A stretch of DNA of 64,000 nucleotides, taken from positions 11,047 to 75,046 of the IMG/VR virus record IMGVR_UViG_3300045988_101367; one strand, written 5' to 3'. Every line of letters begins with the position of its first letter. Position 1 is the first letter of the stretch. Shown one piece after another: positions 1,465-60,374 of the stretch. Both the position numbers and the translations under genes were made by a program. The notes under the pieces were generated by a model. That model saw only the letters and a program-made list of their open reading frames with translations, was not told the DNA's origin and did not search any database. Source of the stretch: a virus.

Positions 1465-1737
1465 TCACCATTTATTTACAGGACAGTGTGCATTTACAAG
1501 TCTAGTCTTAGCATTAAGACGACATCCACAACCATTTTGATAACCTGGTCGTGCATTTGTACTCACATCTCCCGTTTCTACATTTAACCATAATCTACTA
1601 TTACACATTCCGCCTAGAGCGTTACTAAATAACGGGCATCTATGACAGATTTTTAATCTAGCTTCAGAAATATCAGTATCTAACCCTAGGGCTTCTTTAG
1701 CATGACCTTCTATAATCTAAGCAATAGGTAATTTCAT
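1465..1737 (-). CDS. small Cys-rich zinc-ribbon protein (CxxC...CxxC), one in-frame TAG
   Basis: Manual minus-strand translation: MKLPIA(Q)IIEGHAKEALGLDTDISEARLKICHRCPLFSNALGGMCNSRLWLNVETGDVSTNARPGYQNGCGCRLNAKTRLVNAHCPVNKW. Confidence 0.4.
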
Positions 1738-1738
1738 A

Positions 1739-2656
1739 TTAATATACAATAGGTTTACGTCTCGCTACTTTTAATTGTTGTTTTTTCTTTTTGTAGTAGT
1801 CAGCAAGCATACGTTCTACTTCATCTTTTCGATAAATACAATGATATAGAGTATTTTTCATATTATGATCATAATGATTAAGAATTAAATCTTTAATCAC
1901 ATATTCTGGATGTCTCTGTTGAAGCATAAATGCATAAGTAGAAAGTTGCATCTCATAGTGACCATAATTGCAATCCTCAATAGTGTTTAAAGGGTATTGC
2001 ATTTTAGTAGTACCTCTAGTAACTGTATTAAATCCTCCTTTTAAGTCTATTTTTTTATTAGTTTTATGGTCTACAATAGTAACTTCATTACCATATTTAA
2101 CCATTAAATCAATTTGTCCTGCTAAGTTTAAAACATTATCAGGAGTAGACCAGGAAATTAAATACTCAGGATATACACCATTTTCTAAGTCTAATTTAGT
2201 ATATCCCTCTTTACATATAAATTTACCTCCTAATCCAAATTTCTGTAAAGGCTTATCATCCTTCATATTGTAAAAAGAATGTTCTAATTGAGAATGAATT
2301 TTTGTTCCTCTCTCACAAGACTCTATTTTATTAGCTTCCCATTCATCAAGAATGTTCTGTTGTTCCTTATTAAGGTCATTAATGTCTACAGAATAAGCCT
2401 CTAAAATTTCTTTAGTAATTCTGTGTGTATTAAGTAAAGTCTTTTTTAAATCTTTCCATACATCTGTATCTAGAATTTTTTCCAAAGCTTTATACTTAGA
2501 CCAAAAATCTGAATCAAAAGGTTGTGCATAACTTCCTATTAAAGTAGTTACTGAGATATACTCTTTTTTTGGATTATTAATATCCCAATAAACGTGAGTA
2601 GAATCATTGAAAGCTACTCCATCATTTTCTTTATCAATCTTCATTGTCATTGCCAT
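1739..2656 (-). CDS. PD-(D/E)XK family nuclease (RecB/Cas4/YqaJ-like fold)
   Basis: Motif GQIDLMV-x12-TIVDHKT fits D...(D/E)XK; 305-aa ORF from the track. Confidence 0.5.
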   Translation of the reverse strand: MAMTMKIDKENDGVAFNDSTHVYWDINNPKKEYISVTTLIGSYAQPFDSDFWSKYKALEKILDTDVWKDLKKTLLNTHRITKEILEAYSVDINDLNKEQQNILDEWEANKIESCERGTKIHSQLEHSFYNMKDDKPLQKFGLGGKFICKEGYTKLDLENGVYPEYLISWSTPDNVLNLAGQIDLMVKYGNEVTIVDHKTNKKIDLKGGFNTVTRGTTKMQYPLNTIEDCNYGHYEMQLSTYAFMLQQRHPEYVIKDLILNHYDHNMKNTLYHCIYRKDEVERMLADYYKKKKQQLKVARRKPIVY

Positions 2657-3344
2657 TTACAGTATCATCAAGTATTGTAGATAATCGTTGAATTTGTGGA
2701 GAAATAACTGTATTATAATAACCTAACTCATATTGTTTAGGCTATTTATACAAAACTACTATTATTCCTATAGGATTTCTAACTCCTTCTATAGGATATA
2801 AAGCAGCTGAGTATGCCCCACTCTATTCTAACTTTTTATATAATCTAGGGAAAGTGTTTTTAATTTGAGGAAGACTATCAACTCTTAAATAAGTAGTATC
2901 ATCAATTTTACTTAATTCTTCTTGGTAATTAGTATACTATAAAGTCTACCAATAATCTCCGACATATTCATCAGAATATGATTTTACACTTTCTCTTATA
3001 CAATCTAAATAAATATAACTAAAACCCTGTAAGCTATGCTTAGTATTATGATAACTTAATAGCAAAACATTACTACAATCAGGATCTTTTATTTTTATAT
3101 TATCAATACACTAAGCTATATAAGGAGCTTGTTTAAATCCATTATCTTCTTCTTTACGTAATTCTTCTTTCTATTTTTTTAAAGCACTAGAAAGAGTTTC
3201 TTCATAATAACTTCTAGGAATTGGATTTAGTATAAATATTAATAATACAAAAATAATTATAGTTTTAGTTTCTGAAGTTAAGTTGGAAATAAGATTCCAT
3301 AATTTTTTTAAATAATCTAAAATAACCATTACAATTTTTTCCAT
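2634..3344 (-). CDS. hypothetical late protein (~236 aa) with several in-frame TAG
   Basis: ATG at 3344-3342 and TGA at 2636-2634. Gene length is a multiple of 3 only in the TAG-readthrough frame; it overlaps the nuclease gene start. Confidence 0.4.
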
Positions 3345-3490
3345 ATTACTATAAGTAATATTTGTATATATGTTATCTATAATAACATTATTACTATATT
3401 TAATAGGTAAAGTTATTATTATTTTGTACTATTTAAGTATATATATAGGTTATTTATATTCAAAAGTATTTTAATCTTATTTATTACATT
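3345..3490. promoter_or_regulatory. divergent intergenic region between minus-strand and plus-strand late operons
   Basis: AT-rich 146-bp gap with genes diverging on both sides; no specific promoter motif verified. Confidence 0.25.
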
Positions 3491-4255
3491 ATGACTAATT
3501 CTGAATTACAAGAAAGAATTTGTTCTGCCTATTAGGATTTTAAGATTAAAAATCAGTATAGTTTTATAAATAAACTAAAGAAAGGCGGATAGATAAAAGA
3601 TAGAAAAGATACTATTCATATAAAAGATAAAAATAAGGGTAAGTTTACTGCCTCAGCTAAAGCAGCTGGAGAATCTGTACAGGAGCATGCTAAATCTATA
3701 TTAAATAATCCTAATGCTACTCCTTTACAAAAACGTCGAGCTAATTTTGCTAGAAATGCTGCTAAATGGAAACATGCTAATGGAGGCACTATTCTTAAAA
3801 TGTAGTTAGCAGGTAAGATGCCTGGAACTAGGAGTCAATATAATAATGTGACTTAGATATATCAAGCTTTAGTAGATAAAGGAGTTACCCCACAGGCAGC
3901 TTTAGATTTAACTAACCAAAAGGTTGCAGAAAAAGGTTGGACTGGATTCGCTACTGGAGATAATAAAAAATATCCTAATGCACAATCTTTTGCAGACCAT
4001 ATAATTAATTGGCATAGTAGAATGTATCCAGACTCACTTAAAGCCTAGAATTTTTAGTAGTACTATGATGGAATACAAAAAAATGCTAAGTACATGTATA
4101 ACTCTGAAAAAGGCTATAATGGTTACAGAAAAGATTTATTACTTACAAGACCTGGGGTAAAGAAAAGAATTAATTATTATAGAGCTACTAAAGGATTAGG
4201 ACCATTAGCTTTAGTTAATTTTAATTAGCCTGGTAATTATTCTAGTTATGCGTAA
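3491..4255 (+). CDS. hypothetical late/virion protein (254 aa) with 7 in-frame TAG
   Basis: Continuous protein-like frame MTNSELQERICSAY(Q)DFKIKN...GWTGFATGDNKKYPNAQSFADHIINWHSRMYP... only if TAG is sense; ends TAA 4253-4255. Confidence 0.45.
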
Positions 4256-4493
4256 GAATAAATATTATAAAGAAAATAAAAAGATTTTAAATGAACATAA
4301 AACACAATGTATAATATGTGGTGAATCAGCTAAATGTTGTTTAGAATTTCATCATACTGGAGAAAAATTATTTAATATATCACAAGCTGTAAGTCATATA
4401 CCTACAGATTTATTTATTAAAGAATTATCTCAAACAGTTTGTGTTTGTAAAAATTGTCATTCTAAAATACATAATGGTTTGATAAAATTATGA
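4248..4493 (+). CDS. HNH endonuclease (small, free-standing)
   Basis: CIICGESAKCC-LEFHH-x-N...CKNCHSKIH matches the HNH zinc-finger nuclease signature; standard code; overlaps neighbours by a few nt. Confidence 0.6.
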   Translation: MRKNKYYKENKKILNEHKTQCIICGESAKCCLEFHHTGEKLFNISQAVSHIPTDLFIKELSQTVCVCKNCHSKIHNGLIKL

Positions 4494-5152
4494 GTGAATA
4501 TTTTAAATATGAAGCTTTAGATATTCCTGATAAACCTGCTACAGAAGTACTAAAAAGTAAAGGTTTAGATTTAGATTTTACTCCTAAACAATATTAGTAT
4601 ATTCCTGAATTAAATACTGGAGATTTTCATATTAATGGTTTAAATTTAGATGGATATTTTTCTATTAATAAAGCTAAAGAGCCTGTACAATATAAATATA
4701 CTCAGCTTAAATTAAACCATAATACTCCTAGTAAAAATAAATAGGTACTAGAATAGACTTTAGATAAATATGGTATCACTGGAAACAAGAAAACTACTTT
4801 AATGAAGATAGCTTCTCTAGAATCAGGATTTAATTCTAAAGCTCAATCTAAAAATAGTTCTGCTGCTGGATGGTTCTAGTTTATAGATAGTACTAGAAAT
4901 AAATATTCTAATTTATCTAGAGAACAGTTTAAAAATAGTCCTGATGCACAAGTATTAGCCGCATCACAATTATATGATGATAATGCAAGATTTTTAAGAA
5001 ATAATGGTATAGCAGCTACTGGAGAAGCTATAGCAGCATCATGGTTAAATCCAAAATGGACTAAAAATTATTATAAGTATGGTATTGCAGGAGGGTCTGA
5101 TGCCAATGGTACTAGTGTTGCAAAATATATAAATAAATTTAGAAATGCCTAA
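4490..5152 (+). CDS. lytic transglycosylase (SLT-domain) peptidoglycan hydrolase, TAG-recoded
   Basis: LESGFNSKAQSKNSSAAGWF(Q)FIDSTRNKY matches the SLT ES...AxGLMQ motif. The motif Gln is encoded by TAG, which supports TAG=Gln. Confidence 0.6.
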
Positions 5153-5788
5153 AATTTTGGAAGAATTGGATCGTCAAGTAGATAAATGGGAACCTACCGC
5201 GGCAGCTATATCTTTAGGTAGTTTAGGACTAGGTGCAGGTATAAGTACTACCGCTGTAGGTGCTCCTATAGGAGGAATTATTGCTGGAGTAGGTTAGTTG
5301 CCTTCTTTAGTTATAGATGGTTATCAAGCTGGTAGAGGATGGTACAAGACTTTTAAAGAATCCCCAAGTAATTTTGGAAATGCCGTATGGAATACTTTGG
5401 AAACTGGGGCAGATATATTAGGAGCTAAATTTGCATCAGCTTTAGCTAAGGGAGGTTCTAATTTTCTTAGATCTAGCGTATACAAACCTGGTTATTACCC
5501 TAAACATCATTCTCCAAGAGTTAATGCTATGCGAAAGAGACAAGTCGACGTAGTATTAAATTAGCAGAAAAAGAAGCTACTGAAAAATTGGCTAAAAGAG
5601 GAGTTCGATCAAGTCAAGGTTCATACTTTACATCTAAATTAAACTAGGAATTAAATAAACCTTATTTAGAGTAGGTAGCTAAAAGGAATACTGTAGTAGC
5701 AAATGATGTTACTAAATTAAGTCCTAAAATATAGTTACCTATTTAGATTATACCTAATATTATTGATATACATGCCAGAAATAAATAA
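5145..5788 (+). CDS. Gly/Ala-rich membrane-associated late protein; reading frame switches -1 between about 5525 and 5564
   Basis: Frame 0 gives MPKILEELDRQVDKWEPTAAAISLGSLGLGAGISTTAVGAPIGGIIAGVG(Q)LPSLVIDGYQAGRGWY.... A protein-like frame with 5 TAG continues in the -1 frame (…AEKEATEKLAKRGVRSSQGSYFTSKLN(Q)ELNKPYLE(Q)VAKRNTVVANDVTKLSPKI(Q)LPI(Q)IIPNIIDIHARNK) to TAA 5786-5788 and has no ATG of its own. Confidence 0.3.
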
Positions 5789-9444: not shown

Positions 9445-9445
9445 G

Positions 9446-9517
9446 TTCTCCCACAAGGATTCGAACCCTGACTAAAAGATTTAGAGTCTTCTGTGCTAAC
9501 CATTACACCATAGGAGA
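9446..9517 (-). tRNA. tRNA-Sup(CUA), amber suppressor
   Basis: Hand-folded cloverleaf: acceptor TCTCCTA/TGGGAGA, D-stem GTGT/GCAC, anticodon stem GAAGA/TCTTT with loop CTCTAAA (U33, anticodon CTA, A37), T-arm CAGGG-TTCGAAT-CCTTG, discriminator A. No CCA encoded. Confidence 0.7.
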
Positions 9518-10993: not shown

Positions 10994-11413
10994 ATGTCAC
11001 AGATTACAGTAGGTAAAGATGGCGATGTTCGCCACAGCGCTATGTCAGCTAGACAAATAGCTGAAGAAACAAAGCAGAGTACAAACATCAGATTGGCATT
11101 TGGTGCCATAGTACAACTGAATGCGCAGGATTTTACAATTCCTGCGAACATGATGACTGGGCAGCCAGCTCAGCCATCGCAAATACTCACCGCCAGCGGT
11201 ATCACCGTTGGTAATTTGGAAGGGGAGCGTACTGTGAATGTTACTCGCATCTTGTCTTTAGTTTGCCTAGGTTGCAATAACTTAACACAGGCATCTACTT
11301 GGTTGGCTGACCATCATGTAGTAGGTTTTGATGTTGATATTGAAACATTACAGAACTATGGCAACGCACGAAGATTTTCTAATGTGCGTTTGGTAACTGA
11401 GAATGCTGAGTAA
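10994..11413 (+). CDS. hypothetical protein (139 aa), GC-rich moron-like gene
   Basis: ORF composition (~45% GC by eye) differs sharply from the flanks. It is bounded upstream by C-tracts and downstream by a strong terminator. No family recognised. Confidence 0.5.
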   Translation: MSQITVGKDGDVRHSAMSARQIAEETKQSTNIRLAFGAIVQLNAQDFTIPANMMTGQPAQPSQILTASGITVGNLEGERTVNVTRILSLVCLGCNNLTQASTWLADHHVVGFDVDIETLQNYGNARRFSNVRLVTENAE

Positions 11414-16240: not shown

Positions 16241-16324
16241 ACGGTAGTAGCTCAGTGGTTAGAGCATCTCTTTTTATAATAGGTCATTTCGAGAAGGTCA
16301 TTGGTTCGAATCCTTTCTACCGTA
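16241..16324 (+). tRNA. tRNA-like gene, long extra arm, anticodon loop TTTTATA (nominal anticodon UUA)
   Basis: Acceptor ACGGTAG/CTACCGT perfect, D-arm GCTC-AGTGGTTA-GAGC, weak anticodon stem TCTCT/ATAGG (one mismatch), same unusual T-arm ATTGG-TTCGAAT-CCTTT as the 15731 gene. Confidence 0.3.
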
Positions 16325-16406
16325 CAAATTTAATTTGATATATTGTTAGTGTGTTTGGATAAATCCTGTATTAGTACGTTACCACTATTCTCCTTTATAG
16401 AAATGT

Positions 16407-19451: not shown

Positions 19452-19523
19452 AAATGTGTAGCTCAGTGGTTAGAGCATCTATCGTTGAGTAGAAGGTTGG
19501 CAGTTCAAATCTGTCCACATTTC
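19452..19523 (+). tRNA. tRNA with atypical anticodon arm (possible 8-nt loop)
   Basis: Acceptor AAATGTG/CACATTT perfect, D-arm GCTC-AGTGGTTA-GAGC, T-arm GGCAG-TTCAAAT-CTGTC. The anticodon region folds as TCTA-TCGTTGAG-TAGA. Confidence 0.4.
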
Positions 19524-19719
19524 CTTTTTCTATCATTATTTTAATTTTTAATTTATTAAAAATAAAAGAGCTTTGCTTGTGAAAGTAGAGCTCTTATCAA
19601 AATTATGCGAAAACTTTAATAAGTCGGAGGACTTACAAAAACTCAAAAACAGTGTGTCTTAGTTGCAACGTTCTCTTGACTGAGAAAGGAGAGGATTAAC
19701 GACCCTCAGACACATCTTC

Positions 19720-27321: not shown

Positions 27322-27654
27322 GGGGCATTCGTGGTTTTGATTGTATAGGAGATAAGAAACACAGCAAGACAGTTGGAGAGACAACAAAACAATAATCGCT
27401 AGAGTTATCAATATGACTCCTGTTTCTTACGCTATTGCAGCCTAAGAAACCGAGCAGCACTTGCTTGGGAACGGAAAGGTGCATTATTCTTTTATTTCTT
27501 TATTAGTTCTCTGTATACTTTAGGAACAGAGTGGTGGAAGTTGGCAATGTTAATCTTGTCAACCCTAACAGACAAGGATAGTCTTTAAAACCTATGCTGT
27601 AAGAACGTTTTGATGCAAATATGCAAGACTGGAGTTCGACTCTCCAATGCTCCA
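27322..27654 (+). ncRNA. ssrA: tmRNA (SsrA-like) candidate
   Basis: 5' GGGGCAT pairs with 3' ATGCTCC (one G-U), giving a tRNA-like acceptor with discriminator A. 3' T-arm TGGAG-TTCGACT-CTCCA. Internal tag-like reading frame ...aat atg act cct gtt tct tac gct att gca gcc TAA (…SYAIAA*) resembles the ...YALAA tmRNA tag ending. No protein ORF in the region. Confidence 0.55.
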
Positions 27655-27688
27655 CTAGTTCATAGAACTATTTTATTATTTGTTTTTA

Positions 27689-40797: not shown

Positions 40798-40896
40798 ACT
40801 TAGTTTGTTTGAAATTAATAAAGCGAATCTTAACTCATAAGTATTATGTTGCTAAATATTGCTTTCAAATAGGATTATATTGGCAAGGTATTACTC

Positions 40897-41196
40897 ATGA
40901 TTTGTCTAAATTTAGTTTTACAGAATTTTCAAGAGCTATTAAGTATTGGGATACATTCCTTAGATAATGGAGAAATTCCTGCTAAAATGCCTAAAAAATA
41001 TGTTCTAGAACTTATATGTGATTATTTAGCAGCAGCTAAAACATATGGAGCTGACCCTAGAAGAGAATATACATGGTGGCTTAAACAACAGCCTCATATG
41101 AAAATCCACAAAAAAACTAAGAGTTATATAACTGAAGTGTTTTATAAATATAGTATAGGTTTAACATTAAAAGAATCAATTAATGGAAATTATTAA
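40897..41196 (+). CDS. hypothetical protein (99 aa)
   Basis: Track ORF. Confidence 0.35.
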   Translation: MICLNLVLQNFQELLSIGIHSLDNGEIPAKMPKKYVLELICDYLAAAKTYGADPRREYTWWLKQQPHMKIHKKTKSYITEVFYKYSIGLTLKESINGNY

Positions 41197-42473
41197 TGCA
41201 ACTGATGGCTACAAGCTTGGTCATCATCGTATGTACCCAGAGGGTACACAAATGGTCTATAGTAATTGGACTCCTAGAAGTAATCGTTACTTCCCAGAAG
41301 CTACAGAAGGTTCTGTAGTATTTGGTATTCAGTACTTTGTAAAGAAGTATTTGATAGAGGAATTTAACAAATGGTTTGCTCTTCCTAAGGAAGAAGCTAT
41401 TAAGCAATTTGCTTATCGTGTAGGCAACTTTGTAGACCTTAATCAGGTTGGAACAAAACATATTGAAGAACTTTATGATTTGGGGTATCTTCCTATTGAA
41501 ATTAAAGCTCTTCCTGAAGGTTCTATCTGCCCTATAAGAGTGCCTATGATGACTATTAAGAACACTCTTCCTGATTTCTTCTGGTTGACTAATTACTTGG
41601 AAACTTTAATTAGTTGTACTCTATGGCTCCCTTGTACTTCTGCAACAAGTGCTCGTCTTTATAAGAAGAGACTTATAGAACATGCTAGAAAGACTGGATT
41701 CCCAGAGGAAGTAAATCTAGGTTTCTCTTGTCACGATTTCTCAATGAGAGGTATGGCAGGACTTGATGCTGCTATTATCTCTGGTATGGCTCATATGACT
41801 TCATTCTGTGGTAGTGAAACAATTCCTGCTATTGAAGCAGTAGAACATTATTACAATGCAAATGTTACTGAAGAACTTGTAGCTGCAACTGTTCCGGCTT
41901 CAGAACATTCAGTAATGTGCGCAGGAGGTGAGGATGGTGAGATTGAAACATACCGCCGTCTTATTAATGACCTATATCCAACAGGTATTATCTCAATAGT
42001 ATCTGATACTTGGGATTTTTGGCAGGTAGTTGAGAAATTCTTGCCTAAGCTTAAGGCAGATATTATGAAACGTGTTGGTCGAGTAGTAATTCGTCCTGAT
42101 AGTGGTGATCCAGTAGACATTATTTGTGGTCTTCGTACAAATCCTCACTATCATACTGCTATGAAAGAAGGTAAGTATTACTGTGATTTTAATCCATTTA
42201 TGGACGATGATGAAAATCATTATGTAGAAGTATCTGAAGGTCAGTACTATGGAGCATATTATATGCTAGGAAAAATCTTTGGATGGAATACTACTGTAAA
42301 TGACTATCGTTATCCAAGTACCAAGGTTGGATTACTTTATGGAGATTCTATTACTCTGGAGCGTCAGCGTGATATCTATGCTAGATTGGAAAACGCTCAT
42401 ATGGCAGCTTGTAATCTTGTTCTAGGTATTGGATCTTATACTTATCAGTTTAAGAGTAGGGATTCACTTGGCT
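41183..42473 (+). CDS. nicotinamide phosphoribosyltransferase-like enzyme (NAMPT family; Namat-type candidate), exon 1
   Basis: N-terminus MEIINATDGYKLGHHRMYPEGTQMVYSNWTPRS matches the NAMPT start (…[23 protein letters not shown]…). The frame stops 7 codons after ...SRDSLG inside the intron. Confidence 0.65.
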
Positions 42474-42686
42474 TAACTGCGAGGCCCTTTATATAGTAAT
42501 GTATATCGAATAACCGGAAGAATTGCTGGGAAGAGTTTGTTAATTCTTAATCAGCAGCCGAGCCACAGGGAAGACTGAGGAAGGTTCAGAGACTAAGGAC
42601 ACTACGGTGAGCCTACAGCCTCCGGAATCCCTAAATATAGGGATTATGATATAGTCCATAAAAATTAACATAATTTAGCTTTTATG
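42474..42686 (+). mobile_element. group I self-splicing intron (IA2-like core, no ORF), 213 nt
   Basis: Contains P (ccggaagaattgctgggaagag), Q (aatcagcagcc), R (ggttcagagactaa) and S (gatatagtcc) consensus-like elements. 5' exon ...cttggcU can pair with gaGGCC (P1 with U-G at the splice site). Intron ends in G before tcgcag...; splicing restores the NAMPT C-terminus in frame. Confidence 0.65.
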
Positions 42687-42949
42687 TCGCAGTAAAAGCA
42701 ACTGCTTGTATAATTAATGGAAAGCTTATAGAAATCTATAAGCATCCAAAGACTGATGATGGAACAAAGAACTCTCTCAAAGGTCTTATTAGAATTGAAG
42801 AAGAGAATGGTAAGTATGTCGCTTATGACCAGCAGACTAAGGATGCAGAACTGCAAGGTTGTCTTAAAACAGTCTTTGTAGATGGAGAATTAGTAAGAGA
42901 ATATTCTCTTTCTGAGATTCGTGAACGTGTAAATTCAACATTAGTATGA
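42687..42949 (+). CDS. NAMPT-family enzyme, exon 2 (C-terminal 87 aa)
   Basis: …FAVKATACIINGKLIEIYKHPKTDDGTKNSLKGLIRIE…CLKTVFVDGELVREYSLSEIRERV aligns with the NAMPT C-terminus (…[29 protein letters not shown]…[21 protein letters not shown]). Confidence 0.6.
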
Positions 42950-43440
42950 TAGAAATTGTTAATGGAGATTTACTTCAGTCAAATTTACCTCTTATAGCCC
43001 ATCAAACTAATTGTTTAGGAGTAATGGGGGCAGGTATAGCTAAGGCTATTAAAAATAAATGGAATAGCGTATATACACGATATGCCAATTATTGTAAATA
43101 TTTTAAATATTCTAAAGAATTATTAGGGAAATGTCAAGTATGTATAACAGGAGATGAACCTATTAATCTCGTAGCTAATTTATTTGGAGAATATTCTTTT
43201 ACTGAATCAGTAGCTCCCTATGAAAATAGACATACTGATTATGATGCTCTTAAAAAAGCTTTATTAGATTTAAAAGACTTTTGTAAAGATAACGAGATTA
43301 CAGAGATAGGCATTCCTTATAAATTAGGATGTGGATTAGCAGGAGGAGATTGGGACGGAGTAGTTTATCCTATGCTCCAAGAACTTTTTGCTAATGATTT
43401 AACAATAACCCTTTATATTTATAAATTATGCAACAATTAA
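42946..43440 (+). CDS. macro domain protein (ADP-ribose binding/processing)
   Basis: GDLLQSNLPLIAHQTNCLGVMGAGIAKAIKNKW matches the macro-domain GDIT…VNAAN…GGGVxGAI pattern. Confidence 0.55.
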   Translation: MIEIVNGDLLQSNLPLIAHQTNCLGVMGAGIAKAIKNKWNSVYTRYANYCKYFKYSKELLGKCQVCITGDEPINLVANLFGEYSFTESVAPYENRHTDYDALKKALLDLKDFCKDNEITEIGIPYKLGCGLAGGDWDGVVYPMLQELFANDLTITLYIYKLCNN

Positions 43441-44237
43441 ATTTAGTACATTTAGAAGATAGTGATATTAAGTATTCTATCTCTAGATTCCCTGATGGAG
43501 AAGTTCAAATTTCATTAGAAGAATTCAGTCATAAGGAGCAAGTATTAGTTAACTGTAGAGTTACTAATGCTGAAGACTTATTTATACTTATACAAGTTTT
43601 AGATATTCTTGATAGACATGAAGTTCTGTATAAGTTAAATATCTATTACTTAATGAGTATGAGAATGGATAGAGTAATGGATTTCAATAGACCATTCACT
43701 TTAAAAATAGTCTTAAACATATTAAAAAATTGTAATGCAGAGACTATTGAAATTTTAGAACCTCATTCTGATGTTTATTATGATCCTAGATTCGGAGTTA
43801 AATTTATGCCTCTCTATAGTGAAAAGAATCCATCTAATAATACTTGGAAAGAATTTCAATTAGTTTTCCCAGATGCTGGAGCTGTAAAGAGAAATGAATT
43901 CAGATATAATCGCGTAGGAATTACTTGTAGTAAAGTCCGAGATTTAACTACTGGAAAAATCTTAGAGATTAAAATAGATAATCCTGAAAATATACAGGAT
44001 AAACCTCTGTTAATTCTTGATGATTTATGTGATGGTGGTGGAACCTTCTGTGGTATTGCTAAAGCATTTAATGCTTTAGGTATTTCTAAAGAGCGTTTAA
44101 ATATTGCAGTTACTCATATGGTAAATTCTAAGGGTATAAAGAATCTGTCAGAAAATTTTAATCACGTATGGTTTACTAATTCTTATAAAGACTGGGACAA
44201 TCTTCCTGAGAATGTTACAATGTTTAAGGTTATCTAA
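43428..44237 (+). CDS. ribose-phosphate pyrophosphokinase (PRPP synthetase) family enzyme; Adps-type candidate
   Basis: FPDGE (cf. Prs FSDGE), PDAG and the PRPP-binding loop DDLCDGGGT (cf. DDMIDTGGT). Confidence 0.65.
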   Translation: MQQLNLVHLEDSDIKYSISRFPDGEVQISLEEFSHKEQVLVNCRVTNAEDLFILIQVLDILDRHEVLYKLNIYYLMSMRMDRVMDFNRPFTLKIVLNILKNCNAETIEILEPHSDVYYDPRFGVKFMPLYSEKNPSNNTWKEFQLVFPDAGAVKRNEFRYNRVGITCSKVRDLTTGKILEIKIDNPENIQDKPLLILDDLCDGGGTFCGIAKAFNALGISKERLNIAVTHMVNSKGIKNLSENFNHVWFTNSYKDWDNLPENVTMFKVI

Positions 44238-44707: not shown

Positions 44708-45121
44708 ATGTTACAGATTTATACTGATGGTGCTTATAAATCTTCTATTGACCAGGGAGGTATTGGAATAGTATGGATGAAGGATGATGAAGTATTTAAA
44801 AAATACTCTAAAGGCTTTAAACATACTACTAATAATAAAATGGAATTAATTGCTATGCTATGTGCTTTTAAGTCCATTAAAACTCCAATAGATGAAGTAG
44901 AATTTATAAGTGACAGTCAATATGTATTAGGATGTCTTACTAAAGGATGGAAGAAAAAAAAGAATGTAGAGCTCTGGAATATTTTAGATAAAGAATATGA
45001 AAGAGTTAAATCTTTAATAAAAAATATTAAATTTACCCATGTTAGGGGACATCAAGATTGTTTTGGTAATAATCTAGCGGATGAATTAGCTAGTAATGCT
45101 AGTTTAGAATTATTAGAATAA
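44708..45121 (+). CDS. ribonuclease H (RNase HI type)
   Basis: IYTDGA…GGIGIV…NNKMELIA…SDSQYV…THVRGHQD…NNLADELA follows the RNase HI catalytic motif order. Confidence 0.7.
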   Translation: MLQIYTDGAYKSSIDQGGIGIVWMKDDEVFKKYSKGFKHTTNNKMELIAMLCAFKSIKTPIDEVEFISDSQYVLGCLTKGWKKKKNVELWNILDKEYERVKSLIKNIKFTHVRGHQDCFGNNLADELASNASLELLE

Positions 45122-54107: not shown

Positions 54108-55118
54108 ATGGAATTAGATTTTTCTTATAAACCAGATATTACTAAGGACTACTTACTTAAATATAACACAGAGGAAGCCTATATGGAGTATTATCTTGGC
54201 GTAAAAGTTTCAAAAAAATTAATTTGTAATCCTTTACGTAAAGATAAAAATCCTACGGCTTCCTTTTTTCGTAACTCTAAAGGAGAACTTATATTCCATG
54301 ATTTTAATGGGAGCTTTTATGGAAACTTTATATCAGTAGTTATGACTAAATATGCTTGTAAATACCATCAAGCATTAGACATTATAGCTAAAGATTTTGG
54401 CTTATTAAAAGGACAAAATAATTATCATTCTGTAATACAATCAAGCACTTCTTTTGTTAAAACAAATGAGCCAGCAGATATACGAGTAGAAATAAAAGAT
54501 TTCTCAGAAGATGAATTAAAATGGTGGGGTAAACAAGGAGTTTCTTTAGAATTACTAAATAAATATAAAGTATATTCTTGTCGTACTGTATTTTTAAATG
54601 GTAATATTCAAACTATAAAGACTAAAGATAACTTTATCTTCGGATATTATGGAGGAACAATGCAAGGTAAAGAATTGTGGAGAATTTATTATCCTAAACG
54701 TAAGGAATATAGATTTCTAACAAATTGGCCCTCTAAAAAGGTTCAAGGTTATAGTCAGTTACCTAAAAAAGGTACTTTATTAGTTATAACTAAAAGTATG
54801 AAGGATACTATGTGTTTAAGAGGTTTAGGTGTAACAGCCTGTGCTCCAAATAGTGAAACACAATGGTTATCTGAAAATATGTTAAATGATCTAAAAGAAA
54901 GATTTACTTATATAGTAACTTTTTATGATAATGATAGACCTGGAATGTTTAATATGGCTAAGATAAGAAGAAATCATCCAGAATTACTTTATTTCTTTAT
55001 ACCTCATAAATTCAAAGTAAAAGATATAAGTGATTTTTATAAAAAATATGGTCGACAGAATACTTTAAAATTTATAAAGTATTATATAAAAAAATTAAGT
55101 AACTATGTCAAAAAGTAA
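54108..55118 (+). CDS. DNA primase (TOPRIM domain)
   Basis: TOPRIM-like YIVTFYDNDRPG (DxD) and upstream E residue; lies next to the helicase genes. Confidence 0.5.
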   Translation: MELDFSYKPDITKDYLLKYNTEEAYMEYYLGVKVSKKLICNPLRKDKNPTASFFRNSKGELIFHDFNGSFYGNFISVVMTKYACKYHQALDIIAKDFGLLKGQNNYHSVIQSSTSFVKTNEPADIRVEIKDFSEDELKWWGKQGVSLELLNKYKVYSCRTVFLNGNIQTIKTKDNFIFGYYGGTMQGKELWRIYYPKRKEYRFLTNWPSKKVQGYSQLPKKGTLLVITKSMKDTMCLRGLGVTACAPNSETQWLSENMLNDLKERFTYIVTFYDNDRPGMFNMAKIRRNHPELLYFFIPHKFKVKDISDFYKKYGRQNTLKFIKYYIKKLSNYVKK

Positions 55119-58880: not shown

Positions 58881-60122
58881 ATGAAACAAGCAACAAAATC
58901 TTCTTATATTAAGTTCTTTAATGATGCAATTAATAATAATCGTTCTTTAAAAGCTCAGTGTACTATATCAGGAAAAAATATAAATACTGTATATATTACA
59001 ATGAGAAATCTTAGAAAGAAAGAAAATAAAGATGAAGATGACAAGAAGATATTGGAATTATATGATAGACTAAAGGATACTAAGAAAAAAGAAGTAAAGA
59101 AAGATACAGATGATGCTTCTAATACTTGGGAAATAAGAGACGAGGAGACTGGTAAAATTACTGGATATAAGTTTGAGATTTTCAGAAGAAATAAGCCCGC
59201 AATCACAGGAGTCTTTACTAGAAACGAAATGAATAGTGTATATAGAATGTATACTTATTACGGTTCTGGTTTAACCCAGCAGATTGTCAGCAGATATTTC
59301 CCAGATTATTCTCTTATTGACTTTAAAAGAATTTTACGAGCTTTTAATATTACTAAAGCATCCTCTCCGTTTGCTCCTCATATGTATGAAGAATATACTG
59401 AGGATGAATTAAAAGAAATGCATCTTAGGGAAAAAGAGAATGATTTCTTAAAAAGAATAGAGAAAGATGAGGTAAAGGATTTAAGAGCTTTAGTTACTAA
59501 GTTAACTAAGGAAACCTCTAAGTCTTTAAATAAGGAACTTATAGAAGACACTATTAAAAATACAGTAAAGGATTATAAAGAGCTTCCAGTAAATATTAAT
59601 AATAAAGAAGCGAAATATCCTGATTTAATTATATGGTTATCTGATTTACATATCGGAGCTTATAATGCTAAATATAGTAGTTTTGTACAGTTACCTTCTT
59701 ATGATGTTCCAGAAATTAAATCTAGATTATCTAGAATTGTGGAATCTTTTGTGGGACAAGAATATCATTCTGTATATGTAGTTAATCTTGGAGATTCTAT
59801 TGATGGATTCAATAAAGAAACTACTAGAGGGGGTCATGAGCTTCCTGAGATTCTTGATAATAAAGAAATTAGTGAAGCATTTATAGAGTGTATGATGGAG
59901 TTCTTTGCTACTCTTACAGTAAAAGTAAAAAGTGAAGATTTTAATTATCTCTCTATAGGAGAATCTAATCATGGTGGGGATTTTGAATGGTTAAATCAAA
60001 AACTCTTAGCTGCATATTTAACTAAATATAATATTAAGAGTTATATTAGTAACTATCCTATTGATAATTTTATTATTGGAGATCATCAATTCCTGTATGC
60101 TCACGGTAGAGTTTTGCCGTAT
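58881..60122 (+). CDS. calcineurin-like metallophosphoesterase (Mre11/SbcD-like), exon 1
   Basis: Motifs IIWLSDLHIGA, NLGDSIDG, GESNHGG and GDHQFLYAHG, in the order expected for this family. The ORF ends a few codons later inside the intron. Confidence 0.5.
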
Positions 60123-60374
60123 ATTTGAGAAATCAAATATGTTAAAACAAACCAATATCGGTGAAGGCTGTGATGCTAATACCGAGATAACTACAGAAAC
60201 TAAAGAGTCTGTAGCATCGTAGAGCGTAGAACTTGAACCTGAGAAATCAGAATAAAATAGTTCCAAGAGTGGTTTGCCCTCAGCACGTAAAGGTGGAGGT
60301 GAATATGTACGCCGAGCTATAGTAAATAAGAAACTATAGAAATACAGATAAAAAGCTGTATGATAACAAAACTG
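60123..60374 (+). mobile_element. group I-like intron without ORF, homologous to intron 28967-30277; approximate boundaries
   Basis: ~230 nt share ~85% identity with 30050-30277 (e.g. gaaggctgtgatgctaat…, tacgccgagctatag…, tatagaaatacagataaaaagctgtatgataacaaaactg). The start atttgagaaatcaaata resembles atttaagcaaattcagta of the other intron. Confidence 0.5.

Follow-up and report, generated by a model that had tools for sequence, protein, structure and literature searches.

A probable group I intron in the NAMPT-family gene of an uncultured phage, and its intron-less and endonuclease-bearing alleles

Does a phage enzyme gene whose reading frame is closed by stop codons still give rise to a complete protein? 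This question is raised by a NAMPT-family gene in the 64,000-nucleotide stretch of viral DNA analyzed here (the window), which covers positions 11,047 to 75,046 of IMG/VR virus record IMGVR_UViG_3300045988_101367. According to the list of open reading frames (ORFs), the frame that starts at window position 41183 runs to ...YQFKSRDSLG and then meets TAG at 42494 and TAA at 42497, seven codons past position 42473. The original prediction, made from the letters of the DNA, held that the frame resumes 213 nt later and assigned the intervening segment, 42474-42686, to the compact group I introns on the basis of P, Q, R and S core elements. Our analysis led to the same reading. With a probability of roughly 0.9, judged from sequence comparisons, this segment is a group I intron that removes itself from the pre-mRNA of a NAD-salvage (NAMPT-family) gene of a gut phage, and the intron is probably functional. 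A match to the Rfam intron model, alleles that precisely lack the segment, compensatory base changes and a gap-free protein alignment all point in this direction.

Joining position 42473 to 42687 produced a 517-amino acid (aa) ORF containing ...SLGFAVKATACIING.... At the nucleotide level, the junction of the spliced form reads ...CACTTGGCT↓TCGCAGTAAAAG... (...GATTCACTTGGCT joined to TCGCAGTAAAAGCAACT...), where the union of ...CUUGGCU and UCGCAG... restores the UUC codon of Phe431. The insert keeps the frame across its length (213 nt, or 71 x 3) and, read in the exon-1 frame, contains nine stops, namely two TAG, five TAA and two TGA. Since all three kinds of stop are present, the insert is non-coding under any stop recoding, including by suppressor tRNAs. 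In the ORF list, no plus-strand ORF of at least 30 aa was found within 42474-42686. The spliced product matched the Pfam families NAMPT_N and NAPRTase (E 3.8e-9 and 4.6e-34) and the solved NAMPT structure PDB 9w5x (E 1.4e-141), with an alignment free of gaps at the junction (RDSLG↓FAVKAT vs. RDTFGFAMKAT). Two other 3' splice sites were considered and rejected: G42678, where the Rfam model ends, leads to a stop after four codons, and G42689 costs one residue as well as the P10 pairing. Relative to 9w5x, the phage protein also has an insertion of approximately 40 aa (LRTNPHYHTAMKEGKYYCDFNPFMDDDENHYVEVSEGQYY) at residues 317-356 (window 42131-42250).

We then compared the locus with its relatives, which were found by searching viral contigs with the spliced protein and are designated here by L numbers. 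At least 16 alleles with 92-99% identical NAMPT (L003-L012, L052, L058, L066-L069) are colinear with the window at 42473↓42687 and lack exactly 213 nt, and their target sequence at the exon junction is TCTTTGGGTTTCGCAGTTAAAGC. Compared with these close alleles, the 517 window codons show no frameshift or stop and both exons are intact. We regard such precise intron-less alleles as the most direct evidence on the boundaries. The boundaries originally proposed thus proved exact to the nucleotide, as did the break after ...SRDSLG with resumption 213 nt later and the terminal G (G42686), and the expected alignment of the spliced frame with NAMPT was also borne out. In the window and in L070, L205, L217 and L225, the intron interrupts the RD(S/T)LGFA motif at its G↓F codon. 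Of these relatives, L205 and L217 have NAMPT genes approximately 58-77% identical to that of the window, and L225 approximately 40%. The intron-minus copies include, besides the close alleles, a group with approximately 77% NAMPT identity.

To what type of element does the insert belong? When the slice 42380-42780 was scanned alone, the Rfam model Intron_gpI (RF00028, gathering score of 50 bits) matched 42464-42678 on the plus strand with 58.9 bits (E 1.3e-14), over its full length (model positions 1-253 of 253). This match was recovered only in the 401-nt slice. A gathering scan of the whole 64-kb window returned tRNAs and a tmRNA alone and missed Intron_gpI, and a joint search of the L066, L068 and L070 loci (23.6 kb in all), run by E-value, returned nothing, although the L070 intron is 97% identical to that of the window. 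Both misses in large regions arose because of the Infernal speed filters, and negative whole-window Rfam results in AT-rich phage DNA are poor evidence of absence. The original prediction had proposed this very covariance search and had counted the lack of a match among the grounds for rejecting an intron. The local scan does provide the match, whereas the routine whole-window scan would have led falsely to rejection.

All four core elements were located where they had been predicted (Table 1). We found the ordered series P, Q and R at a single place in the window and never in 100 dinucleotide-shuffled sequences, while the single 9-mers of R and S occurred in the window at chance frequency; no paired R and S motifs were found elsewhere in the 64-kb window. 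We also built our own covariance model, R1, from the introns of the window, L070 and Dulem virus 41 (PP511520.1, L001) with a hand-drawn structure. It scored the window intron at 258 bits. A filter-off scan for other R1-type introns in the window yielded only 17.7 bits at 54689-54778 and 14.4 bits at 60102-60285. Neither hit is supported, Rfam giving no intron match at the latter, and the insert in NAMPT is the only intron of this type in the window.

The helices P1 to P10 were written out by hand and every pair was checked by script. Base pairing was found for P1, P2, P3, P4, P5, P6, P6a, P7, P7.1, P8, P9, and P10 (Table 1). The P1 helix has the form originally proposed, with exon GGCU facing GGCC (42483-42486) just inside the intron and a U.G pair at the cleavage site. 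The Rfam alignment and direct inspection agree in setting the 5' splice site after U42473. Within P7, the guanosine-binding pair is expected to be G42591-C42656. A minimum free energy (MFE) fold, which makes no use of homology, recovered P2, four P3 pairs, P4, P5, P6, P6a, P7.1, P8, and P10. In introns of subgroup IA2 (the T4 td and Twort type), P7 and the 3' strand of P3 are separated by a pair of additional helices, P7.1 and P7.2. In the window, this gap measures 23 nt and holds one interrupted 19-nt hairpin, and even this P7.1 hairpin is missing from most members of the R1 family, in which the helix column consists mostly of gaps.

Table 1. Coordinates of the interrupted NAMPT-family gene, the predicted intron with its helices and core motifs, and the downstream genes in the window (↓, splice junction).
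Feature	Position	Strand	Description	Support
Exon 1, NAMPT-family gene	41183-42473	+	430 codons plus first base of Phe431 codon; 3' end GGCU is the P1 5' strand	
Predicted group I intron	42474-42686	+	213 nt, phase 1, without endonuclease ORF; terminal (omega) G is G42686	
Exon 2, NAMPT-family gene	42687-42949	+	Stop TGA 42947-42949; first 6 nt UCGCAG form P10	
P1 hairpin	42470-42486	+	GGCU↓U 42470-42474 with AGGCC 42482-42486; U42473.G42483 at 5' splice site	
P10 guide	42477-42482	+	CUGCGA, in P1 loop, directly 5' of P1 guide	6/6 pairs with UCGCAG 42687-42692
P2 hairpin	42490-42505	+	UAUAUA-GUAA-UGUAUA, GNRA loop	Pair check, MFE fold
P3, 5' strand	42514-42520	+	CCGGA.G, pairs with 42619-42625	99% paired in family alignment
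Motif P	42521-42532	+	AATTGCTGGGAA	
P4	42524-42529 with 42551-42556	+	UGCUGG with UCAGCA; encloses P5	100% paired in 144 homologues
P5	42531-42537 with 42542-42548	+	Loop UGUU	Pair check, MFE fold
Motif Q	42549-42557	+	AATCAGCAG	
P6 and P6a	42557-42585	+	P6 GCC/GGU; P6a CCACAG/CUGAGG, one A.A mismatch in the window	
Motif R	42584-42596	+	GTTCAGAGACTAA	
P7, 5' strand	42589-42595	+	G.GACUA, bulged A; pairs with UAGUC.C 42652-42657	
P7.1 hairpin	42596-42614	+	AGG-A-CAC-UACG-GUG-AG-CCU, between P7 and P3 3' strand	
P3, 3' strand	42619-42625	+	C.UCCGG	
P8 hairpin	42626-42645	+	AAUCCCUA-AAUA-UAGGGAUU	Pair check, MFE fold, family alignment
Motif S	42648-42657	+	GATATAGTCC	
P7, 3' strand	42652-42657	+	UAGUCC, inside S element	
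P9 hairpin	42662-42676	+	AAAUU-AACAU-AAUUU	Rfam alignment, pair check, family alignment
3' tail	42677-42686	+	AGCUUUUAUG, ends in omega G	
Macro-domain protein gene	42946-43440	+	Start overlaps NAMPT stop	
Prs-like phosphoribosyltransferase-fold gene	43428-44237	+	Downstream of macro-domain gene	
RNase H gene	44708-45121	+	Downstream of Prs-like gene	

Comparison with individual copies of the intron revealed paired changes in several helices. In L070, which has the intron at the same NAMPT site, a C-to-G change in the exon strand of P1 is accompanied by a G-to-C change in the guide, an A-U pair of P2 is replaced by G-C, the A.A mismatch of P6a becomes A-U and a G-C pair of P10 becomes G.U. The intron of Dulem virus 41 has UGGG/CCCA in place of CCGG/CCGG in P3, a U-A pair at the position of the P6a mismatch and two compensatory changes in P7.1 (A-U to G-C and C-G to U-A). 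In L205, two double changes convert the P10 pairing from CUGCGA/UCGCAG to UUGCAA/UUGCAA, and P2 shows a compensatory A-U to G-C change relative to the window.

The same conservation of pairing extends to a large family. A pattern based on the P4/Q motif matched at least 120 viral contig stretches, and an R1 search of viral contigs gave 170 matches in 100 sources, from which 144 distinct sequences were aligned. In this alignment, whose pairing is somewhat inflated by having been fitted to R1, 94.0% of cells were standard pairs vs. 61.9% in shuffles, both-sided changes were seen in 55 of the 58 pairs, and the covariation score reached 0.541 vs. 0.123 in shuffles and at most 0.095 in slid registers, none of 500 shuffles attaining the score of the real alignment. 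The U.G pair at the splice site was present in 111 of the 144 homologues. The hand-checked close copies described above are free of the fitting bias, as is a test on P7, a helix that was deliberately kept out of R1. Over the 144 sequences, P7 was 97% paired vs. 23-56% in slid registers; its outer pair was A-U in 100 sequences and G-C in 27, and the guanosine-site G-C was invariant in 136. Lastly, the exact P7.1 17-mer was found in 30 viral stretches, and R1 matched 29 of the 30 loci fetched in addition to Dulem virus 41 and the window.

From these pairings, the intron would be expected to follow the standard group I pathway. P1 would form between the guide just inside the intron and the 3' end of exon 1, with cleavage at the U42473.G42483 pair. 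An exogenous guanosine, docked in P7 at G42591-C42656, would attack after U42473. P10 pairing of the CUGCGA segment with the opening hexamer of exon 2 would then bring the terminal G42686 into the G site. Finally, the freed 3'-OH of exon 1 would attack after G42686, joining the exons and restoring the 517-aa enzyme.

The relatives with an intron at the same codon also shed light on its history. The L205 intron is 1230 nt long and contains an intact endonuclease ORF (318-323 aa), in which SANT/Myb-like repeats are combined with two LAGLIDADG motifs (Pfam LAGLIDADG_1, E 4e-7); the frame of 323 aa continues past the 3' splice site and ends within exon 2. In the 1221-nt intron of L070, only the C-terminal 193-213 aa of the frame are open (LAGLIDADG_1, E 8e-9). 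On its two sides, the L070 insert has copies of a direct repeat, AACTTTTAT and AGCTTTTAT(G), which follow the pattern A(A/G)CTTTTAT, and where L070 has this insert the window has a single repeat copy, AGCTTTTATG. Moreover, window positions 42678-42686 are identical to the last 9 nt of the L070 intron, which there code for the C-terminal A-F-M of the ORF. The 3' tail of the window intron is likely a scar of the loss of an endonuclease gene. The three introns can be arranged as a decay series in which the gene is intact (L205), truncated (L070) and deleted (window), and the deletion would be explained most simply by recombination between direct repeats flanking the ORF as in L070. Most likely, then, the window copy lost its endonuclease ORF, and we view this intron as a non-autonomous remnant, left with splicing alone, of a putative homing lineage that would invade this NAMPT codon with the LAGLIDADG enzyme encoded in the intron.

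Two further patterns are of interest regarding mobility. Between lineages, the intron core has diverged less than the flanking exons, with identities to the window of 87.5% vs. 72.5% and 65.6% in L205 and of 74.8% vs. 61% and 54% in L225. Horizontal transfer would account for this difference, as could structural constraint by itself. In addition, a cluster of synonymous differences at the 3' end of exon 1 (its final 8 nt, 42466-42473) separates all the intron-less close alleles from the window; here the window reads TCA CTT GGC T and these alleles TCT TTG GGT/A T, both encoding S-L-G-F; one more change is found at exon-2 position +9. Such a cluster would match what is expected from co-conversion during homing, from selection on P1 pairing or from resistance to the endonuclease.

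Several observations weigh against a working intron. The thermodynamic z-score of the MFE fold is only -1.68, P9 is a weak all-A/U helix, P6a has an A.A mismatch and P3 an A.C mismatch at positions where some relatives pair, default Rfam scans leave the intron unreported both in the 64-kb window and in the 23.6 kb of related loci, and the direction of the endonuclease change, loss or gain, is argued from parsimony. The gene is also dispensable in the lineage. The closest GenBank relative, MT835492.1 (L002), is an unannotated 121.6-kb phage scaffold from human feces, with 95.8% identity to the window over 88% of 24 kb. At positions 3247-3432 of this scaffold, a deletion fuses the first 32 codons of a DUF5662-family gene to the last 29 NAMPT codons (...GLYWQG↓CLKTVFVDGELV...). 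Enzyme and intron have both been removed, which indicates that NAMPT is dispensable in this phage lineage; because of this fusion, MT835492.1 was rejected as an intron-less reference. In the window itself, the DUF5662 gene next to NAMPT is disrupted by a frameshift or deletion. A dispensable gene next to a broken neighbor makes it conceivable that the intron was recently inactivated, in which case it would be of group I by descent but no longer spliced, its NAMPT gene would be decaying and only the truncated 437-aa protein would be made. The absence of any remaining endonuclease ORF would fit this scenario as well. We nevertheless consider a dead intron in a pseudogene unlikely. Both exons have stayed intact over 517 codons, with 92-99% identity to alleles without the intron. 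P1 and P10 pair perfectly and have changed in concert with the exon sequence, all core helices are retained along with the G-site pair, and the identical allele recurs on 13 contigs.

This recurrence also bears on a second explanation, in which an intron-like fragment of another phage was misjoined into NAMPT during assembly. The uncultured source of the window and a core motif common across many viral contigs could raise such a suspicion, but it is effectively refuted. The exact 437-aa exon-1 product, with its read-through tail, is found on 13 independently assembled public contigs from several sources, human-gut runs included, meaning that the allele is real and recurrent rather than an assembly artifact. 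Furthermore, the same intron occupies the same codon in four other loci, and its guides are complementary to the exon ends of its own gene and covary with them. Recoding without splicing, whether by bypass (as in T4 gene 60), by suppressor read-through or by an in-frame protein insert or intein, is hardly credible: the insert length is a multiple of three and the window has tRNAs with anticodons CUA and UUA, but two TGA are among the nine in-frame stops of three kinds and rule out read-through by these tRNAs, the insert is four times longer than the gene 60 gap and has no intein-like ORF, and a group I ribozyme fully accounts for the RNA structure and covariation.

Self-splicing thus remains our preferred reading, and we turn to the genes surrounding the intron. 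Upstream of NAMPT, the DUF5662-family gene (40809-41196, plus strand; approximately 388 nt) is broken into an ORF at 40809-40967 and another at 40897-41196, which overlap and differ in frame. The corresponding ORF is intact in L066 and L070 (167 aa, 504 nt), and the window copy is probably a pseudogene resulting from an internal deletion. Downstream of NAMPT are genes for a macro-domain protein, a Prs-like phosphoribosyltransferase-fold protein and RNase H (Table 1). Phage Nampt-family genes have been linked to NAD+ reconstitution against NAD-depleting defenses, in a NARP1 pathway with a Prs-like (Adps) and a Nampt-like (Namat) enzyme and a NARP2 pathway with a true Nampt and Nmnat (bioRxiv 10.1101/2024.02.11.579819). 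The pairing of Nampt-like and Prs-like genes in the window recalls the NARP1 anti-defense operon.

The NAMPT gene is divided at a second place in some of the relatives, immediately after the catalytic-His motif ASEHS (L066-L070, approximately 3732-3988/4508; L205, 10672-11492, minus strand; L225, approximately 895-1627). The site corresponds to window positions 41913-41962, approximately, and is also split in NAMPT genes with approximately 40% identity. There, the N-terminal ORF ends in a novel tail of approximately 30 aa and the C-terminal ORF starts from a separate ATG with a leader of approximately 20 aa; between the two halves we found nothing, an HNH-type ORF, or two small ORFs. No intron was detected at the SEHS site with Rfam in L068, L225 and L205, nor with R1. 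Either the invasion of a free-standing endonuclease gene led to a two-piece NAMPT, or the site contains an unrecognized type of intron. On a speculative note, and with considerable doubt, a homing lineage specific for NAMPT/Namat might cross unrelated phage clades and make two catalytic-site codons of an anti-defense gene, at RDSLG↓F and SEHS, battlegrounds between co-infecting phages. An endonuclease-less copy might then be kept for immunity to the LAGLIDADG enzymes of relatives, and exon co-conversion might spread NAD-reconstitution alleles.

A few other features of the window and its relatives were noted. The window encodes two suppressor-type tRNAs, one with anticodon CUA (reading UAG; 9445-9517, minus strand) and one with anticodon UUA (reading UAA; 16241-16325, plus strand), the latter with 85 nt and a long extra arm. 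An odd ARAGORN call at 19452-19524 has a 2-nt "anticodon." Long ORFs in the window end in TAA (20), TGA (8), or TAG (4), and the HNH-type ORF of L066 has an in-frame TAG within its CxxCG-x-EKP motif. Stop-codon recoding in this phage lineage is possible. Clusters of tRNA genes lie at 15.6-19.8 kb and 36.0-37.3 kb, and the tmRNA call (27322-27657, plus strand) scored 49.1 bits in Rfam for a cut-off of 47, with ARVINMTPVSYAIAA as the tag peptide given by ARAGORN. R1-type introns also occur in tandem on other contigs: at least 14 matches lie within approximately 4 kb (approximately 1500-5400, minus strand) of L132 (IMGVR_UViG_3300044846_005229, 279 kb), at least 11 in L150 and at least nine within 2.2 kb of L133, and L136 has such an array too.

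With these results, the NAMPT family joins the phage genes in which homing introns insert. In the literature searched, we found no report linking an intron to phage NAMPT or nadV, only papers that treat the two apart, and no mention of MT835492. On at least 13 public contigs, gene callers end the enzyme after 437 aa and leave exon 2 uncalled; consequently, surveys of phage NAD-reconstitution or anti-defense genes will under-count or misjudge such alleles. A single site with full, decayed and deleted endonuclease genes as well as intron-free alleles also provides a useful natural series for following homing endonucleases of gut phages through their life cycle of invasion, decay and loss. Our understanding of how group I introns work is unchanged, and the intron is a well-supported but ordinary case of a type of element already common in phage genomes.

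Group I introns in the td, nrdB and nrdD genes of phage T4 and in phage Twort are long established. The T4 introns are mobile and interrupt nucleotide-metabolism genes at conserved catalytic-site codons. They are polymorphic for presence and absence, with endonuclease-plus and endonuclease-less forms coexisting, a pattern that is reproduced here. The differences are that T4 endonucleases are of the GIY-YIG or HNH type, whereas here a LAGLIDADG enzyme is fused to SANT/Myb-like repeats, and that the host gene belongs to the NAMPT family. Twort introns, which we take to be members of subgroup IA2, bring another comparison, as Twort-like Staphylococcus phages (Herelleviridae) likewise have a group I intron in a protein gene. 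The record of phage Quidividi (MH321490.1) describes its terL gene as "interrupted by two introns," and in the terL intron the P1-P2-J2/3 module has almost the same sequence as in the window (94% over 34 nt), with a similar 5' exon end (UUGGGU↓U). Quidividi differs in its host gene, a terminase, in its VSR-type homing endonuclease, in that only the 5' part of the intron matches R1 (33.6 bits), and in belonging to another phage family that infects another host phylum.

Habitat and size class are shared with the small introns of the human-gut jumbo Jug phages and crAss-like phages; introns of approximately 200 nt are abundant in gut phage genomes (PMC12880540). In Jug phages, each genome has approximately 18 introns of approximately 206 nt, and metatranscriptome reads confirmed splicing for about half of the introns that were tested (PMC12880540). 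As at our locus, the introns of these phages are ORF-less or occur with HNH or LAGLIDADG endonucleases, and gene calls are fragmented (PMC12880540). The interrupted genes reported there are terL, nrdD and those for DNA polymerase and the major capsid protein; NAMPT has no mention in that study (PMC12880540). Jug genomes are 360-400 kb long vs. approximately 175 kb for the present phage (related IMG/VR contigs of approximately 170-180 kb). In the crAss-like phage cr131_1 (NC_055902.1), the gene for the major head protein is split at a site that matches R1. Among annotated records, the closest relative of the intron core is in Dulem virus 41 (92% identity over 76 nt, 81% over 116 nt; R1 196 bits), which shares the P7.1 hairpin with its UACG loop. 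There, the intron splits a primase/polymerase gene and P2, P5, P8, and P9 differ; the pieces of this gene are annotated as separate coding sequences along with a "hypothetical protein," and no intron is indicated.

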